From Promethearchaeota archaeon (lineage in GTDB: Archaea > Asgardarchaeota > Lokiarchaeia > Sigyniarchaeales > SOKP01): DNA of 64,000 nucleotides. How positions within the stretch are numbered: the stretch's first letter is position 1; every line of letters begins with the position of its first letter. The stretch covers positions 1-64,000 of the forward strand of contig JAUVXW010000008.1 in NCBI GenBank assembly GCA_030603385.1. The letters are read 5' to 3'. The position numbers were made by a program, and so were the translations under genes. This document shows positions 17,220-32,659 of this stretch, piece by piece. Under the pieces are notes generated by a model. That model was not told the DNA's origin. It worked only from the letters and a program-made list of their open reading frames with translations, and made no database searches.

Positions 17220-18041
17220 ATGAAGTTAATGATAATCATGGATAATTATCAAAATTCTAAGGAAAACCCACTAGCAATGGAAATGCTAGGTATTGGTTTA
17301 GTTGAAATTTCACAAATAGATATAGAAGCTAAATTTAATGTGCTATTCCAGAAAGGAATAGGGGTACCACTTATTCAAAATATTATTGAATTATATAAAA
17401 AAGAAATTATTCATAAAAAGCAGGGGAATTCGATAATTCCCTTAGAAAAATTCACGATCTTTATTCACTATTTTGAAAATCACAATCATAATATATTAGT
17501 TATAATTTATATGGAAAAAAAAGATAGTTCAGTAAATTTTTCTAAGTTATATTTCTTATCGAGAAAAATAAATAGGAAATTTCAGTTAAATGAACCTGTC
17601 TCAAATATAATAGAAGATTTTGATACAGTTGTGGAAGTTCCCAGAACAGATGGGATCATAGCAATTTTTATTATAGGTTCAACAGGAAGTCCATATATAT
17701 CTAAAATTAATAAGGATAGATCTGAAATCGCAGATCATGAAGTTCACATAGGGGGTTTCATTTCTGCTTTATTATCATTTTCAAACACGATTATTGGAGA
17801 AGAAACTGGAGCAAAATTAAAAGAAATTAACTTTGGTAATCAACAATTCTATGTTATATCGAAGAGCAACGTGATTTTTGCTTTTTTGGTCGAAAACATG
17901 AACTCATTAATTCAAAGATACATGTACTTACTTGCTGACGAATTCCTCTACCAATTTAAGAATCGTATAAAAGACTTTAACGGGGATATAACCCCATTCA
18001 ACTGTTTTGAAGAAAAAATTAATCAATATTTTATAATATAA
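17220..18041 (+). CDS. Longin-domain protein (probably tandem longin-like)
   Basis: C-terminal IIAIFIIGSTGSPYI..., IGGFISALLSFS, LKEINFG, ADEF...F.....FNGDITPF..FEE: typical Asgard longin pattern. Confidence 0.75.
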   Translation: MKLMIIMDNYQNSKENPLAMEMLGIGLVEISQIDIEAKFNVLFQKGIGVPLIQNIIELYKKEIIHKKQGNSIIPLEKFTIFIHYFENHNHNILVIIYMEKKDSSVNFSKLYFLSRKINRKFQLNEPVSNIIEDFDTVVEVPRTDGIIAIFIIGSTGSPYISKINKDRSEIADHEVHIGGFISALLSFSNTIIGEETGAKLKEINFGNQQFYVISKSNVIFAFLVENMNSLIQRYMYLLADEFLYQFKNRIKDFNGDITPFNCFEEKINQYFII

Positions 18042-21139: not shown

Positions 21140-21202
21140 ATTTTTTTTTAAAAAATAAATAAAAAATTTCACTGAATTAATAAAAATTTGGAGGAAAAAG
21201 AA

Positions 21203-23212
21203 ATGGGTTTTAAGAAGGTTAACCAAGACGAATTAAAAACAAATGGTGGTCCAAGTTTTCTCGGTATGCCTATAAGAGAAGTAGGAAAGATAGTACAAAC
21301 TAAAAAGAGAGAGAAAAAAATTGATTCAAGTTCACTTGGCTCAATCTCAGAGATATTGATACTTAATGAAGAATTTTTAGAATATCAATTTCATGACAAT
21401 GGGAAAAGGAAAGCTTTAGCAGGCTATGGAAACATAGTAGTTTTTAACAACTCACTTAAAGATAGAATTTGGGATACTTTTTTAAAATTTACAGGAACTC
21501 AATTTGATAATCAGGATTCAGAAAAAGGTATGCATTTGGTAATTTTTGAACCCAATTCAAATAAAATTTTGAAATATGAAATTGTAAATTCAGAAATATT
21601 ACCTGATTTAGTAACTGTAAATGAAAGTATAGAAAATTTGAACCAAGACATTAAAAATGTAAAGAATAGTGATTTTGAGGAAGAAAACACAATAAATGAT
21701 AATCAAATAAATCATATGTTGCTATTAGGAATAGAAAATAAAGTAAAATTTTCTATATCAGTAGAAAATGTTTCTTCCACAATTCTAGAAAATGTAAAAC
21801 TAAAAAAACAATTCTCAAATAATTTCTATGATTTAGATTTTAAAGGTTCATTGAGTAAAGACATTGAAATTACTAACAATTACATTGAATACCCTGTTAA
21901 GAATCTAAATCCCGGAGAGAAAGTAGAAATAATTCTTCTTGCGAACATATTTCCAAAAAAGAAAGAAAATATCAAGACTGGGAGAATAGAAGTATCATTT
22001 AATTTGAAGAATCAAACTATTTCAGAAGTAGAAATCAACCATTTCTCTGCTTATTCTCATGCTATGCATGCTATTAGAAAAACAGAGAAAGAATTTGCTC
22101 CTAATCAATGGGATTGTTCTTTAGTATTCGGAAATCATAGCGATTTTAAGATGAAATTAAATTCAATTCTAATTTTAGATAAAACTAAAAAGAATAAACT
22201 ATTAGAACTTGATTTTAGTGATAAAGTGGTAATGATGGCTCCAGGAGAGAGCTATGAAACAGAGCATTTTGATTATCAAGATGAAGGAGAACCAACTTTT
22301 TCAAGAAAAGTAGATTATTCAGTAGATTACAAAGTTGAGAAAAATTCTATGATTACAGTTCAAGTTGAAGATAATATGTTTAAAGTTGCTAATGCGATTA
22401 TCAAAAAGAAAATTGCTGAACGGGAAATTAAGTCATTTGAAGAATCAAAAGTTAATACAGAGTTCATAGTGAATAATCGAGGCACCATGCCAATAAAGGG
22501 AATTATTGCTAAAGAAAGAATACCTGCAGACTTTTTACCACCAAGGGAAGTCTCAAATTTTAAATTCCTAAATTCTTCTGGGGAATTAAAACTTGAGGAT
22601 ATATATTTAAGAATTAGTCCTGATGATGACGATCCAACACACGAGCACGTTTTAGAATTGAATGTTAATTTGGAAACTAATCACGGGAGTACTCTAATAG
22701 GAGTAGATGACTTTTTAGAAGTTAAATACCCTTTAACTGCTGTAACTCCAAATTATGAAAATCATTATGAGTTTCCATTAGAGATACAATCTTATTATTC
22801 GAAATTTTTAGAGTCTGAGCTAGAGGAATATTATGTAATCACTAATAATATCGCTGATATGGAAAAATCCTCTCTAAAAGTTACTCATAAACGTCGTAAA
22901 ATAATGATAGGAAAGGAAATCTTCCCTGGAAGAAGCAGCAATGAGTTTGCAATTTATATCACTGCAAAAAATGGTTCAAACATAAAATTATCAGATGTGA
23001 GTGTCACTGATACATTTCCAGATTCATTTGAATTAGTTTCTTCAAATATTGACCATAAACTTAGTAAAGTTGATAAGTCAGGAGAGCGTAGAATATCTTT
23101 TAGTCTTGATATTTTACAACCATATCAAGAAAGAGAGATAATGTACTATTTAAAAAACATTGCAGGAAAGGAGATTAGATTTTCAGAATTAGAATCATTT
23201 TTTATTGGTTAA
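21203..23212 (+). CDS. Cytoplasmic multi-beta-sandwich (Ig-like/DUF11-like) protein of unknown function
   Basis: Repeated N.S...L..V.V.D/E..P..F and L.PGE patterns; no signal peptide or TM; GGAGG at 21190 supports ATG 21203. Confidence 0.65.
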   Translation: MGFKKVNQDELKTNGGPSFLGMPIREVGKIVQTKKREKKIDSSSLGSISEILILNEEFLEYQFHDNGKRKALAGYGNIVVFNNSLKDRIWDTFLKFTGTQFDNQDSEKGMHLVIFEPNSNKILKYEIVNSEILPDLVTVNESIENLNQDIKNVKNSDFEEENTINDNQINHMLLLGIENKVKFSISVENVSSTILENVKLKKQFSNNFYDLDFKGSLSKDIEITNNYIEYPVKNLNPGEKVEIILLANIFPKKKENIKTGRIEVSFNLKNQTISEVEINHFSAYSHAMHAIRKTEKEFAPNQWDCSLVFGNHSDFKMKLNSILILDKTKKNKLLELDFSDKVVMMAPGESYETEHFDYQDEGEPTFSRKVDYSVDYKVEKNSMITVQVEDNMFKVANAIIKKKIAEREIKSFEESKVNTEFIVNNRGTMPIKGIIAKERIPADFLPPREVSNFKFLNSSGELKLEDIYLRISPDDDDPTHEHVLELNVNLETNHGSTLIGVDDFLEVKYPLTAVTPNYENHYEFPLEIQSYYSKFLESELEEYYVITNNIADMEKSSLKVTHKRRKIMIGKEIFPGRSSNEFAIYITAKNGSNIKLSDVSVTDTFPDSFELVSSNIDHKLSKVDKSGERRISFSLDILQPYQEREIMYYLKNIAGKEIRFSELESFFIG

Positions 23213-23257: not shown

Positions 23258-24109
23258 ATGAATTTACAGTTTTATGAAACAATACAAGATAAGTCAAAAA
23301 AATATTTGACATATCTAATTGACCAGATACTACCAAAATTCACAATCGGTGAATTTAAGTATTTTTTAGAAGATTTAACAAATAATACCACTAAAACTAG
23401 TAAAGGAACTAAGGGACAAAAGACTAAATCAACAGAGGAATTTATTAAAATCGGAGATGATGGTGGAAAATTTGCAGAATTATCAAAATTAGATGAAAGC
23501 CAAAGAAAAATACTATTTCAAATTTTCATTAGTAGGGAAGTAAATGACAAAATGGCAGTAAAATGGCGTTTTTATCAATATATAAAATATCACTTAGGCC
23601 TGAATATAAAAACTGTAAAGGTTAATAGGGCATCTAAACATTTTGTTGATTTCATTATTGAAACAGATGAAAAAGAAATAATATTTGTTTCATGCCATGA
23701 TATTTTGGAATTAAATAGATTTAAAGAGGTTTTAAATCAAACAGCTGAGTTTGCTAAGAAACAAAATTTATCCCCTAATAGAATCATTTTTTCTGCTTGT
23801 AAATCATTTCGAAACATACCCATTGAAGAATCATTCAAAATCGGCAATACAGAGATAACTCCAGAGTTGTGGATCGAATGGATTGAAGAAAATCTCCCTT
23901 ATGATAGAGAGGATCTTTTAATAGTCAATAACTCAGAGTTAAAGTTAGCAGGATTTAACTTCACAAGTACAGAAGATTTACTTAATTACATATACCATAG
24001 TTCAAATGGTGGTCAAATTTCAATTTTTAAACAATCAGATTTTTTTACTGAAGCCTCTGATAATGAAGCTGAAATAGAATTAGTCTGGAAAGGAATTATG
24101 ATAAAATAA
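23258..24109 (+). CDS. Hypothetical protein in che cluster
   Basis: 283-aa ORF with GGAGG upstream, co-oriented within the cluster. Confidence 0.75.
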   Translation: MNLQFYETIQDKSKKYLTYLIDQILPKFTIGEFKYFLEDLTNNTTKTSKGTKGQKTKSTEEFIKIGDDGGKFAELSKLDESQRKILFQIFISREVNDKMAVKWRFYQYIKYHLGLNIKTVKVNRASKHFVDFIIETDEKEIIFVSCHDILELNRFKEVLNQTAEFAKKQNLSPNRIIFSACKSFRNIPIEESFKIGNTEITPELWIEWIEENLPYDREDLLIVNNSELKLAGFNFTSTEDLLNYIYHSSNGGQISIFKQSDFFTEASDNEAEIELVWKGIMIK

Positions 24110-26230: not shown

Positions 26231-26785
26231 ATGTTAAAAACTGGCTATTATGATTATATATATAAAGTAGATGGAGAGAAAATAAAATTAAAACCAGAAA
26301 AGATTTTTGATGCTTCAGGAGTATATTTAATCGTAGATAAGGAGTTAAAACTCATATGGATTTGGTCGGGCAGTCATTCTCGTTTATTTCATAGATATAT
26401 GGCTGCGAATTGGGCCGGGAAATTAAAAACTAAAAAAAAATTCTATAATTTCAAGTATGAAGTAATTAAACAAGGGCTAGAACCCTCTGAATTCAGGATA
26501 ATTTATAAAGAAATCAAAGAAAATAGAACGGATTTAACATATCCAGGTCAATCGAGAAAGGATTCAATTAAAAGTAAACCGTTAGAGGAATATGTCTCAA
26601 GAACTTCGACTACTCGAATTAAAACAATGGATTTGCTTTCAGATAGCATTGTAATATCCAAATCTGATAAATCTAGAATAAAAAAAATATTAGTTGAAAT
26701 AAAGGAAATGCAAAGCCACATCAAATATTCTATTGAACATATTCAACAACGTTTTACTGTAATTGAAAAAATATTAGGAAGATAG
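26231..26785 (+). CDS. Single-domain gelsolin-like protein with C-terminal coiled coil
   Basis: FDASGVYLIVD....IWIWSGSHS....R..A...A......VIKQGLEPSEF is the gelsolin-repeat pattern. Confidence 0.75.
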   Translation: MLKTGYYDYIYKVDGEKIKLKPEKIFDASGVYLIVDKELKLIWIWSGSHSRLFHRYMAANWAGKLKTKKKFYNFKYEVIKQGLEPSEFRIIYKEIKENRTDLTYPGQSRKDSIKSKPLEEYVSRTSTTRIKTMDLLSDSIVISKSDKSRIKKILVEIKEMQSHIKYSIEHIQQRFTVIEKILGR

Positions 26786-29592: not shown

Positions 29593-30267
29593 ATGAAAAG
29601 AAATAATAATAACGATAAGCAACCGGGTGAGTTTAAACTAACCCCAGAACAAATAGATACGTTAAAGGAACTAGGAAATATTGGTTCCGGACATGCAATT
29701 ACGGCCCTTTCAAAATTACTAAACAATGAAATAGAAGTTTCCCTAACATCTGCCGATATTATTCCTTTTTGGAAAGTTCCTGAATTGTTCGATACTCCTA
29801 ATGTTGAAGTATTTGGGATCTATTCTAAGATTCCATTCAATTCAGATTTATCAATAATTCAAATATTTACTAAAGAATCACTTGTTAATTTAATTAATCT
29901 CCTTAACACTAATGATAAGGTTTTCATTGAAAATATAAGAAATATCGAGGATCTAGATGATTTTTCTATTAGTATAATAACTGAAATTGGTAATATATTA
30001 ACTGGACATTATGCAAGTGCTTTGGCAGATATACTATCAACTCAACTAATTCCTAATGTTCCAATCGTAGCACTAGATACATTAAACGCGATGTTAAATG
30101 GTATCATTGCTAAATATTCTCAACTATCAGATTATTTAGTACTAATAAAAACTAAAATAGCACTACCAGAAATTAAACTGAATTGTATAATGTGTTTTAT
30201 TCCTTGTATGAATATACTAAAAAATCTATTTAAAATTTTAAATATAAAATATAATATGAATCTATAA
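29593..30267 (+). CDS. cheC: CheY-P phosphatase CheC
   Basis: DTLKELGNIGSGHAITALSKL and SIITEIGNILTGHY. Confidence 0.93.
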   Translation: MKRNNNNDKQPGEFKLTPEQIDTLKELGNIGSGHAITALSKLLNNEIEVSLTSADIIPFWKVPELFDTPNVEVFGIYSKIPFNSDLSIIQIFTKESLVNLINLLNTNDKVFIENIRNIEDLDDFSISIITEIGNILTGHYASALADILSTQLIPNVPIVALDTLNAMLNGIIAKYSQLSDYLVLIKTKIALPEIKLNCIMCFIPCMNILKNLFKILNIKYNMNL

Positions 30268-30273
30268 TAAGAA

Positions 30274-31233
30274 ATGTCAAGATTAACCATATTAGAAGAA
30301 TTGCTTTCCAATCTATTAAATGAGGCAAAAGACCTTTCCGCAGCTCTAGTTGTTGACTTAGATGGTTTGATTATTGCTAAAAAGTCAAATGGTGGGTTTG
30401 ATGAAGAATTGATTGGTGCTATTATGGGCATTCTTGAACAAACAATAAGTAGGATAAAAAAGTATACAGAAACATCATTTGGAAGTGGAACACTCAACAC
30501 TAATGAATTTCAATTATTTTATGTAGAATTAAGTAAAGTCACTCCCGCAATCTTTGTCATGGTTGGAGATCAATACTCAAACATTAATCAATTTATTCCT
30601 TATGCATATATAGTGACGGAAAAAATTTCATTAATTTTAAATAATCGAGAAACCCCTGTAAATCTCCCAAAATTAAGTAATACTGCAGAAATAATATTTA
30701 ATCCAGACCCTAATGTCCATTATGGCAATAATAATATAAATAAGATAGTTGTTGTTGGATCTGAGGCAGTTGGGAAAAGTACATTAGTTGAAATGTATAG
30801 GAAGGGAAAATTTGAAGAAATTTATAAACCAACTATTGGAATTTCTATTAAAGAGAAAAAATTACATATTTCCAAAGACTACAATTTATGCCTATATCTC
30901 CTTGACTTAGGAGGTCTAAAAAGTTTTGCTAAAATCCGCAAATTTTATTATAATTATTCAAATGCGGTTCTCATTTTGTTTGATTATGCTAAAATGGAAA
31001 CTTTCAATAAAATTTCTGATTGGATTGAAGAATCGCGCCATTTTATCAAAGATAAATCAATCCCAATTGTTCTCATAGGAAACAAAATCGATCTAGCCGA
31101 AAATCGTGAGGATTTTAAGATTCAAGCCCAAAATCTAGCAGACCAATATAATATTCCATTTTTTGAAACATCAGCATATACTGGAGAGGGAATTGATGAG
31201 TTGTTTACTTACTTAATATCATCCTTACTTTAA
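30274..31233 (+). CDS. Roadblock/LC7 - Rab-like small GTPase fusion
   Basis: N-terminal AALVVDLDGLIIA roadblock; G1 GSEAVGKST, G2 PTIG, G3 DLGGL, G4 NKID, G5 ETSA. Confidence 0.92.
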   Translation: MSRLTILEELLSNLLNEAKDLSAALVVDLDGLIIAKKSNGGFDEELIGAIMGILEQTISRIKKYTETSFGSGTLNTNEFQLFYVELSKVTPAIFVMVGDQYSNINQFIPYAYIVTEKISLILNNRETPVNLPKLSNTAEIIFNPDPNVHYGNNNINKIVVVGSEAVGKSTLVEMYRKGKFEEIYKPTIGISIKEKKLHISKDYNLCLYLLDLGGLKSFAKIRKFYYNYSNAVLILFDYAKMETFNKISDWIEESRHFIKDKSIPIVLIGNKIDLAENREDFKIQAQNLADQYNIPFFETSAYTGEGIDELFTYLISSLL

Positions 31234-31294: not shown

Positions 31295-32659
31295 TTGTCA
31301 ATCGATGTTATAATTGCTGATGATTCTGCGTATTTGAGAAAAAATATTGCTGAGATTCTTAAAGGCAGCGAATTGGTAAATATAATAGAGTTTGCTAAAG
31401 ATGGAGAAGAAGCCATTAAGTTTGTCAAGAAATACAGCCCAGATGTTTTAGTGTTAGATTTATTAATGCCTAAAATGAATGGATTAGATGCTTTCAAAGT
31501 GATCATGGAAGAATGTCCAACCCCAACAGTTATTCTCTCAGCTATTAGTCCCAAAAACCTTGATTCATCTATTCAAGCACTTTTAATGGGGGCATTTGAT
31601 TATATTATAAAACCGGGAGGCATAGGTGCTAAAGATCTACCACGATTCCGTGAAGAATTACTAGCTAAAGTGCTTATAGCTTCTCAATCACAAATAAAAA
31701 AAATTTTTAAAAAGGAAGATGGAGACTACGGAAAGGGTAAATCACTTCGACAAGAAATAATTGATCAAATCTTTGATTTTGGTCAATACCTAAATACACT
31801 AATACCCATTCAAGAAGCTAAGGAAAACCAAGAAGTAATAGACATTGGTAAAACAAAAGAAGTGCAGAAAGAGGCAACAGGTAAATCAGAAATAAAGCAA
31901 ATTGAAAAGATAAATGAACTGAGCATAAAGAAATCCATTAAGCATAAAGAATCAGCAAAACTATCTAAAATAAATGTTGCTAAACCTACTTTAAAAACTT
32001 TATTACAAAAATCTCTACCAAGTTTACAAAAAAGAAAAGAACCAGTTTACACTCCTAACCTTACTCCTATTAAAGGAGTTTCTATCTCATCAAATATAAT
32101 TGTTATTGGTGCTAGCGTTGGTGGGCCTCGAACTATAACTACTATATTAAAAGAAATACCTAGAAATTTCCCTGCTCCAATTTTAATCGTTCAACATTTA
32201 TCAGCACACTTTATGGAAGCTTTTGCTGATAATTTAGATTTGGAATGTAAATTAAAAATTAAGGTTGCGACTAATGGAGAGTATCTTAAACCTGGAGTAG
32301 TCTATATTGCTCCCGGAGAAAAACATATGGAAATTTCTGTAGATGATAAAAGACCTTGCATAAAAATATATAAGGGTACACCAGTTAAATTTTGTATGCC
32401 TTCCATAGATATCTTATTCTTTTCAGCAACAAGAGTTTACAAGGATCGAACCATGGGGGTATTATTAACCGGTATGGGCTCTGATGGTGTTGAAGGTTTA
32501 GGCTCTATTAAAAAAGTAGGTGGAAAAACAATCACAGAATCGATGGAGACATGTATTTTATTTGCTATGCCAAAATTCGCCGCAGAAAAGGGTTATGCTG
32601 ATCAAATTCTGCCAAATTACTCCATCTACCCGGAGATTATTAAATTCTGCAGAAAATGA
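31295..32659 (+). CDS. cheB: Second CheB methylesterase with long linker
   Basis: REC (ADDS, DLLMP, KP); GASVGGP, VQHL, LTGMGSDG. Confidence 0.93.
   Translation: MSIDVIIADDSAYLRKNIAEILKGSELVNIIEFAKDGEEAIKFVKKYSPDVLVLDLLMPKMNGLDAFKVIMEECPTPTVILSAISPKNLDSSIQALLMGAFDYIIKPGGIGAKDLPRFREELLAKVLIASQSQIKKIFKKEDGDYGKGKSLRQEIIDQIFDFGQYLNTLIPIQEAKENQEVIDIGKTKEVQKEATGKSEIKQIEKINELSIKKSIKHKESAKLSKINVAKPTLKTLLQKSLPSLQKRKEPVYTPNLTPIKGVSISSNIIVIGASVGGPRTITTILKEIPRNFPAPILIVQHLSAHFMEAFADNLDLECKLKIKVATNGEYLKPGVVYIAPGEKHMEISVDDKRPCIKIYKGTPVKFCMPSIDILFFSATRVYKDRTMGVLLTGMGSDGVEGLGSIKKVGGKTITESMETCILFAMPKFAAEKGYADQILPNYSIYPEIIKFCRK

Follow-up and report, generated by a model that had tools for sequence, protein, structure and literature searches.

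The stretch of DNA analysed here, referred to as the window, comprises 64,000 nucleotides (nt) of a Promethearchaeota archaeon of the class Lokiarchaeia (assembly GCA_030603385.1, contig JAUVXW010000008.1, positions 1 to 64,000) and has a G + C content of about 29%. Within a chemotaxis (che) operon it carries a gene, located at 30274-31233, which codes for a roadblock domain, a linker and a small GTPase in a single polypeptide of 319 amino acids (aa). This Che-cluster GTPase belongs to a family that lacks the catalytic Gln of switch II. Based on the observed domain architecture, the conservation of the motifs, the separate clade formed by the family and the linkage of the gene to che genes, we consider the protein to be a family-specific two-domain nucleotide switch. 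It would be accessory to the CheF-less Che system of Lokiarchaeia and act most likely with the second CheB of the operon (CheB2), a reading to which we assign a probability of about one half.

The reading frame is open up to its stop codon, and full-length orthologues exist at 50-90% identity; the gene and all other features of the window given below lie on the forward strand. The sequence-only reading had reported an unusual G3 motif, otherwise intact G motifs and no C-terminal Cys, all of which were borne out by direct reading of the sequence. The P-loop (G1) reads GSEAVGKS (aa 162-169, 30757-30780), the Thr of G2 and switch I is Thr187 (30832-30834), which is invariant across the family, and G3 with switch II reads DLGGLKSF (aa 211-218, 30904-30927). 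The motif for guanine specificity (G4) is NKID (aa 270-273, 31081-31092), G5 is ETSA (aa 298-301, 31165-31176), and the protein ends in LISSLL. The match to the Ras model PF00071 covers aa 157-317 (E 8e-39, 133.3 bits compared to a cutoff of 21.6). Together with the G1 pattern GxxxxGK[ST], the G2 Thr, DxxG, [NT]KxD and SA, this places the protein in the Ras superfamily, of whose signatures only the DxxGQ form of G3 with the catalytic Gln is missing. In an alignment of a profile of 73 orthologues with Rab39B and Rab23 (HMMER), Leu215, encoded by CTA at 30916-30918, stands opposite the Rab catalytic Gln, i.e. where Ras carries Gln61. Apart from GTPase and roadblock families, nothing matched the protein, which shows no homology to a known family of Che proteins.

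Rab proteins are defined by the motifs RabF1 (IGVDF), RabF2 (KLQIW), RabF3 (RFRSIT), RabF4 (YYRGA) and RabF5 (LVYDIT). Aligned to Rab39B and Rab23, the Che-cluster GTPase keeps only RabF4 (FYY..S), RabF5 (LILFDY) and part of RabF1 (IGISI), while it has neither the RabF2 Trp nor RabF3 (LLD and KSFAKIR, respectively). A Rab prenylation motif is not present either, and 108 of 118 family members have no Cys among their last six residues. The label "Rab-like" is thus appropriate for the overall similarity, but does not extend to RabF2, RabF3 and the prenylation Cys.

A database search yielded 120 relatives at 50-90% identity, nearly all of about 319 aa in length. They are labelled Lokiarchaeum or Promethearchaeota, and the corresponding Atlas clusters are 100% archaeal. 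The site equivalent to Gln61 could be scored in 118 members and is occupied by Leu (84), Ile (22), Ser (5), Val (2), Ala (2), Thr (1), Phe (1) or Lys (1), and by Gln in none. Leu or Ile is thus found in 106 of the 118 members and a hydrophobic residue (L/I/V/F) in 109. Since CTA is a single base change away from the Gln codon CAA, Gln is mutationally accessible but was never observed. The sequence-only reading would have been contradicted by orthologues with Gln or by a sequencing error. Neither was found, as the CTA codon is unchanged in contigs of four independent metagenome studies, which differ from the window elsewhere. The stretch is also present in sequencing runs of ten studies, which sampled marine sediment, cold seeps and the subsurface.

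Other positions of the G domain are conserved as well. The residue at the position of Ras Gly12 (Glu164, 30763-30765) is acidic in 102 of 118 members (Glu in 91, Asp in 11), which resembles the P-loop GLDxAGKT of Arf proteins. Among the 73 orthologues, G162, G167, K168, T187, G214, K271, D273 and S300 are invariant. Invariant are also Arg222 and Tyr226 of switch II, as are the nucleotide- and Mg-binding residues, and Pro186 in front of Thr187 is nearly so. Judged from these alignments, the lack of Gln is a conserved trait that has characterised the family since it arose.

The genome (3.89 Mb) encodes 61 small-GTPase G domains, of which 40 have DxxGQ and 13 have DxxGE. Leu at the Gln site was found only in the Che-cluster GTPase and in one very distant protein. 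The Che-cluster GTPase is also the only paralogue with a typical DxxG that has no Trp before the Asp, and all other roadblock-GTPase fusions of the genome retain the Gln. A tree was calculated with a quick search for 93 G domains, comprising 35 family rows and 58 other small-GTPase paralogues. In it, the family forms a single clade, which has a support of 99 in the Shimodaira-Hasegawa-like approximate likelihood ratio test and is set off by a long stem (0.78 changes per column). Since the family is one clade apart from the paralogues, Gln was most likely lost once, at its origin. Long forms of 430-498 aa had been considered as a separate sister family; this was rejected, as they are nested within the family in the tree and arose there at least twice. 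The 13 paralogues with Glu are of the type IWDF[AG]GEERFR (e.g. C46:3350-3892, C35:2521-3120 and C42:5999-6532 in genome coordinates). In about four further paralogues the G3 is degenerate, which makes them possible pseudo-GTPases (C39:70477-71037, C39:69833-70360, C15:61055-61645 and C1:8838-9872).

The model of the whole protein, calculated with AlphaFold2 and the orthologue alignment, is confident and shows two domains (predicted local distance difference test, pLDDT, 87.3; predicted template modelling score 0.87). The N-terminal domain (aa 1-122, 30274-30639) has the order alpha-beta-beta-alpha-beta-beta-beta-alpha and reached a pLDDT of 84.8 when folded alone. Its own match to Robl_LC7 (PF03259) is below the threshold (E 0.005, 17 bits compared to a cutoff of 23), and its profile gave only a marginal match among the PDB sequences (cvnB5, 3leq, E 0.34), which made a fold search necessary. 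In this search (Foldseek), the top 23 matches were MglB chains of Thermus thermophilus and Myxococcus xanthus (1j3w, 3t1r, 3t12, 6hjm), with E values of 1e-6 to 2e-5 and template modelling scores (TM-scores) of 0.64-0.75. They are followed by Ragulator subunits, the RagC roadblock and solved roadblocks of strain MK-D1 and Thorarchaeota. The assignment as an MglB-like roadblock/LC7 domain holds, since PF03259 is matched by 30 of 34 orthologous N-terminal domains, with a best E value of 1.9e-7. For the G domain (aa 153-319, 30730-31230), profile matches in the PDB were Rab39B, Rab23 and Thor-Rab (7ezb), and fold matches were Rab27a, KRAS, Rab1b and Rab8 with TM-scores of about 0.88 by target. 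The linker (aa 123-152, 30640-30729) is mostly well ordered in the model, with a pLDDT of about 90 for aa 121-140, and contains the invariant Pro132 (LPKL). These features of the model point to a fixed geometry between the two domains. A prediction with two copies gave a score of 0.25, compared to a mark of 0.42, and counts neither for nor against a homodimer.

Directly upstream of the GTPase gene lies cheC (29593-30267 including the stop codon; PF04509, E 3e-19), with 6 nt between its end and the ATG at 30274, which fits the start reported previously as 7 nt after cheC. Further upstream, the genes code for CheW, CheY, CheA, a protein of about 670 aa, a 283-aa protein, CheW-CheC-CheC, a 184-aa protein, CheR, CheB and CheD. 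Downstream, cheB2 (31295-32659) starts 61 nt after the GTPase gene and codes for a REC domain, a linker rich in K, E, Q and S, and a methylesterase domain. This linker is apparently disordered and of about 160 aa, compared to about 80 aa in the first CheB; in distant lineages the protein reaches a total of up to about 528 aa. With che genes on both sides, the position of the gene inside the operon agrees with the earlier description.

The linkage was surveyed in 400 species genomes of the phylum, with family members scored at 250 bits or more (paralogues reach at most 193 bits) and Loki-type CheA at 50% identity or more to the CheA of the window. A family member was found in 41 genomes and Loki-type CheA in 47. 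Of the 41 genomes with a family member, 34 also have Loki-type cheA, although the genomes are related and these counts do not represent independent events. In 22 genomes, the GTPase gene and cheA are located on one contig, 7.7-22 kb apart. Six of the seven genomes with a family member and no such CheA carry long forms. Among the 32 genomes of the GTDB family with a standard-length copy, 23 have the long-linker REC-CheB directly downstream on the same strand; CheB2, and not CheY, is the most conserved neighbour. Outside the window's own GTDB family (f1) and the families f4 and f7, the 400-genome scan detected only distant CheA (about 30% identity) and no member of the GTPase family. In family f3, of the same order as the window's genome, the matches did not go beyond the level of paralogues (about 140-175 bits).

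The linkage is also conserved in individual contigs, as che genes flank the GTPase gene in six of the seven contigs examined. The closed genome CP070831.1 shows the order CheW-CheC2, 184 aa, CheR, CheB, CheD, CheC, GTPase and CheB2, and Lokiarchaeum GC14_75 has the same upstream genes. A 50%-identical member directly follows a block of CheA to CheW-CheC2 and a 174-aa protein. Two members of 52-56% identity stand alone with a REC-CheB of 527-528 aa beside an A/V-type ATP synthase operon, away from other che genes. One long form is located about 6 kb from cheA-cheY-cheW and a gene for a methyl-accepting chemotaxis protein (MCP), while the seventh contig carries another long form (P0108) without che neighbours. 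The former of these two long forms has 493 aa and is parted from cheA-cheY-cheW-MCP by an insertion sequence (rve integrase) and by the reverse transcriptase of a group II intron, which suggests that mobile elements recently disrupted the cluster in that genome.

Comparison with known systems provides additional means to place the Che-cluster GTPase. MglA and MglB of T. thermophilus and M. xanthus likewise combine a small Ras-superfamily GTPase with a roadblock protein, the fold of which is the closest to that of the N-terminal domain, and under Frz control they have a functional tie to a Che-type pathway (PMC3441718, PMC4316618). However, they are bacterial and consist of two polypeptides, with one GTPase bound by a dimer of the roadblock protein, whereas the archaeal protein is a single one. 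The Myxococcus mglA gene is not near its interaction partners' genes (PMC4316618), in contrast to the gene inside the che operon. MglA also differs in its G3 (TVPGQ or GTPGQ, i.e. T/GxPGQ without Asp) and by an intrinsic Arg finger adjacent to the Thr of G2 (PMC4316618), where the Che-cluster GTPase has DLGGL and Pro186.

The same domain order, with an N-terminal roadblock and a C-terminal small GTPase, is found in the roadblock-GTPases (RB-GTPases) of the Asgard archaeon Prometheoarchaeum MK-D1 (Tran et al. 2024, PMC10933270), a description that mentions neither a che context nor a Gln-less switch II. In Rag/Gtr proteins, the G domain is also covalently joined to a roadblock domain, but the order is reversed, with the G domain at the N-terminus, the catalytic Gln is kept, and their model PF04670 does not match the Che-cluster GTPase. 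Group 1 Rup proteins (Wuichet and Sogaard-Andersen 2014, PMC4316618) are similar in being Rab/Ras-like without a G3 Gln and in having signal-transduction genes as neighbours, and they have been proposed to receive a catalytic residue in trans. They are, however, bacterial single-domain proteins without a roadblock, and their neighbours are not che genes.

For Rab proteins, a Gln can be supplied in trans by a GTPase-activating protein (GAP) of the TBC type. Rap and RapGAP offer a precedent for a partner that inserts an Asn where no usable Gln exists in cis (cited in PMC4316618). The che cluster shows no evident homologue of RapGAP or TBC proteins, and a residue in trans would here be hypothetical. 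The Che-cluster GTPase shares a hydrophobic residue in place of the catalytic Gln with the HAS-GTPases YqeH, FeoB, RbgA, EngA and Era (PMC2848588). These belong to other classes (TRAFAC GTPases, or GTPases of ribosome assembly or transport), several are K+-activated, and the Che-cluster GTPase is not a member of these classes, scoring 20-28 bits against the NCBIfam models of Era, Der and Obg, which have cutoffs above 200. K+-activated GTPases carry a P-loop Asn (GxxNxGKS), the position of which is occupied by Ala in the Che-cluster GTPase.

In Ras and Rab proteins, Gln61 serves to place the water for its attack, and mutants with Leu instead of this Gln are poor at GTP hydrolysis. The G domain of the Che-cluster GTPase keeps the residues expected to serve GTP binding, Mg2+ binding and sensing of the gamma-phosphate (P-loop Lys/Ser, Thr187, Asp211, Gly214, NKxD and SA) and would be held in a fixed position against the MglB-like roadblock domain. 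On this basis, the protein probably binds GTP, its intrinsic hydrolysis would be very slow and its GTP state long-lived. Switching-off, if it occurs, would need a catalytic residue or a rearrangement provided by a partner in trans or by the protein's own roadblock domain. The stronger wording of the sequence-only reading, a GTP-locked switch, extrapolates from the Ras and Rab mutants. Other routes of hydrolysis have been described or proposed for GTPases without the Gln, among them Rap, Group 1 Rup and HAS-GTPases (PMC4316618, PMC2848588).

MglB stimulates MglA by bringing the Gln and the Arg finger of MglA itself into position (PMC4316618). Since both are absent in the Che-cluster GTPase, with DLGGL in G3 and Pro186 before Thr187, classical MglB-type GAP action is ruled out. 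The term "MglBA-like module", used for the protein previously, is therefore adequate for the architecture and the fold of the N-terminal domain but not for the mechanism. The roadblock domain may instead be a platform for dimerisation or for partners, comparable to Rag and Ragulator, or contribute or orient a residue by some other route. The GTPase gene is probably co-transcribed with the gene of the long-linker CheB2 as a rule, and we infer a link to CheB2 or to Che signalling. Gating by phosphorylated CheY, in the sense of the Che phosphorylation considered possible in the sequence-only reading, would be conjectural. The nucleotide state may govern the recruitment or release of CheB2 or of the signalling complex at a cellular site. 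Since fusions of REC and Robl_LC7 domains exist in bacteria (PMC4316618), a partnership between a REC and a roadblock domain is plausible.

Several points weigh against this reading. In the genomes G206, which is 100% complete, and G191, the che cluster is retained together with CheB2, but has no GTPase gene at the locus (G206:C16:33000-48000 and G191:C3:37000-51000). The order there is 181 or 183 aa, CheB, CheD, CheC and CheB2, and CheR is missing at the locus as well. Three further genomes (G184, G198 and G211) have cheA and no family member. With the family profile, these three and G206 gave only paralogue-level matches of about 220 bits, while G191 has a long form on another contig. In some lineages the GTPase gene is present but not beside CheB2, namely in the genome of the 50%-identical member and in G250 and G272-G274. 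Neighbourhood alone does not show a physical interaction, and HAS-GTPases combine a hydrophobic residue at the Gln site with efficient hydrolysis (PMC2848588). Since several genomes keep CheB2 or cheA without the GTPase, CheB2 has no strict need of it, and since about five cheA-bearing congeners lack the standard gene, the GTPase is accessory and not obligatory in the Che system. The cheR and GTPase genes may have been lost together from the operon, probably in one or a few events. Where cheR was found in genomes without it at the locus, it sits elsewhere and is diverged (about 50% identity).

Instead of acting with CheB2, the roadblock-GTPase could be the output of the Che system and relay signalling to polarity, cytoskeleton or membrane machinery, similar to Frz-RomR-MglA/MglB in Myxococcus (precedent in PMC3441718), possibly together with the non-Che genes conserved in the cluster (273, about 670, 283 and 184 aa). 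This alternative deserves serious consideration, although we regard it as unlikely. It would suit cells whose Che system has no known adaptor: a search of 135 genomes from the GTDB family, including 44 with Loki-type CheA, detected CheF (PF04283) in none, but did so in control genomes. The window's own genome (94% complete) gave no match for CheF or archaellin and only a marginal one for T2SSE (25.7 bits), but these absences rest on Pfam models in metagenome-assembled genomes and are no proof. Archaella have been reported in other Asgard archaea, such as L. ossiferum and N. marumarumayae, and CheF in some (PMC13705601; 10.1101/2025.07.22.663070). A sole output would not be expected to be missing in several cheA-bearing congeners, and the steadiest neighbour of the gene is an adaptation enzyme, CheB2, and not CheY. 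A more far-reaching version would wire the bacterial-type Che phosphorelay to a eukaryote-like GTPase/roadblock module and the conserved non-Che genes and let it steer polarity, cytoskeleton or membrane protrusions, not a rotary motor. Lacking Gln, the switch would remain in its ON state until turned off by a partner under Che control, and the system would be a prokaryotic forerunner or analogue of GTPase-driven eukaryotic chemotaxis; we consider this speculative and somewhat less probable again.

Loss of the catalytic residue could also mean that there is no GTPase cycle at all. Proteins of the Rnd type are constitutively GTP-bound, and the Che-cluster GTPase would resemble them if GTP were a structural cofactor of a scaffold for the assembly or positioning of the chemosensory array. 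The absence of a catalytic residue at the Gln61 position in every member, the acidic residue at the Gly12 position, the predicted rigidity of the two-domain unit and the resemblance of the G-domain model to GTP-state Rab and Ras structures are all in line with such a static protein. A pure scaffold, however, would tolerate decay of its switch residues, as seen in decayed paralogues of the same genome, whereas the invariance of Thr187, Gly214 and Arg222/Tyr226 suggests selection for sensing of the gamma-phosphate and therefore for switching. We therefore hold this explanation to be rather improbable. Even less credit is given to an ordinary cycling GTPase that uses another catalytic residue in cis, in the manner of HAS-GTPases (PMC2848588, PMC3153494), so that the Leu would have no regulatory meaning. 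The protein is Ras/Rab-like and not of the Era, EngA, MnmE or FeoB type of TRAFAC GTPases, its P-loop GSEAVGKS lacks the Asn of the K+-activated enzymes, and the alignment shows no standout invariant Gln, Asn, His or Arg beyond those of ordinary Rabs. There is a negligible probability that the trait is an artefact caused by errors of sequencing or assembly, by a private mutation or by decay into a pseudogene. Error and private mutation were rejected based on the agreement of the codon in four studies and the lack of Gln in 118 members, and the frame is open and full length, with a mean column identity of 65%.

Asgard RB-GTPase fusions (PMC10933270), natural loss of the catalytic Gln and coupling of a chemosensory pathway to a Ras-like GTPase (Frz-MglA, PMC3441718) are each already known separately. 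In the open-access full texts searched, including PMC10933270, PMC12962969, PMC13408092, PMC13705601 and the Nerearchaeum preprint, we found neither a small-GTPase gene described as belonging, in a conserved manner, to an archaeal che operon nor the Gln-less RB-GTPase family; the embedding of an RB-GTPase in a che operon thus appears to be undescribed. Asgard archaea possess large families of eukaryote-like small GTPases, and a cellular role is known for almost none of them. The Gln-less family is among the few with a clear functional address, the chemotaxis operon, and has a clean, conserved and easily tested biochemical peculiarity. If the link to Che signalling holds, the family provides a tractable entry to the question of how roadblock domains regulate Asgard small GTPases and to the role of the Che system in cells where neither a CheF adaptor nor an archaellum can be recognised. 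Coupling between a Ras-like switch and a chemosensory pathway would then be represented by two independent cases, the first being Frz-MglA in Myxococcus.

The four non-Che genes named above are kept within the cluster across lineages. The first gene of the cluster (17220-18041, 273 aa) has no Pfam match, the protein of about 670 aa (21188-23212) matches only a DUF11-type repeat, the 283-aa protein (23258-24109) has no significant family match, and the 184-aa protein (26231-26785) has only a weak Gelsolin match (E 0.063). A comparison of the 273-aa protein with the roadblock profile (hhalign) gave a probability of 0.4%, and the Atlas feature search only a weak roadblock/longin lead (0.83). The labels "longin" for the 273-aa protein and "gelsolin" for the 184-aa protein are thus unconfirmed. 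The che cluster itself contains no receptor gene. The only two MCP signalling domains of the genome are located on other contigs, in frames of about 570 aa (C58:14772-15218 and C47:41012-41431, both on the minus strand).

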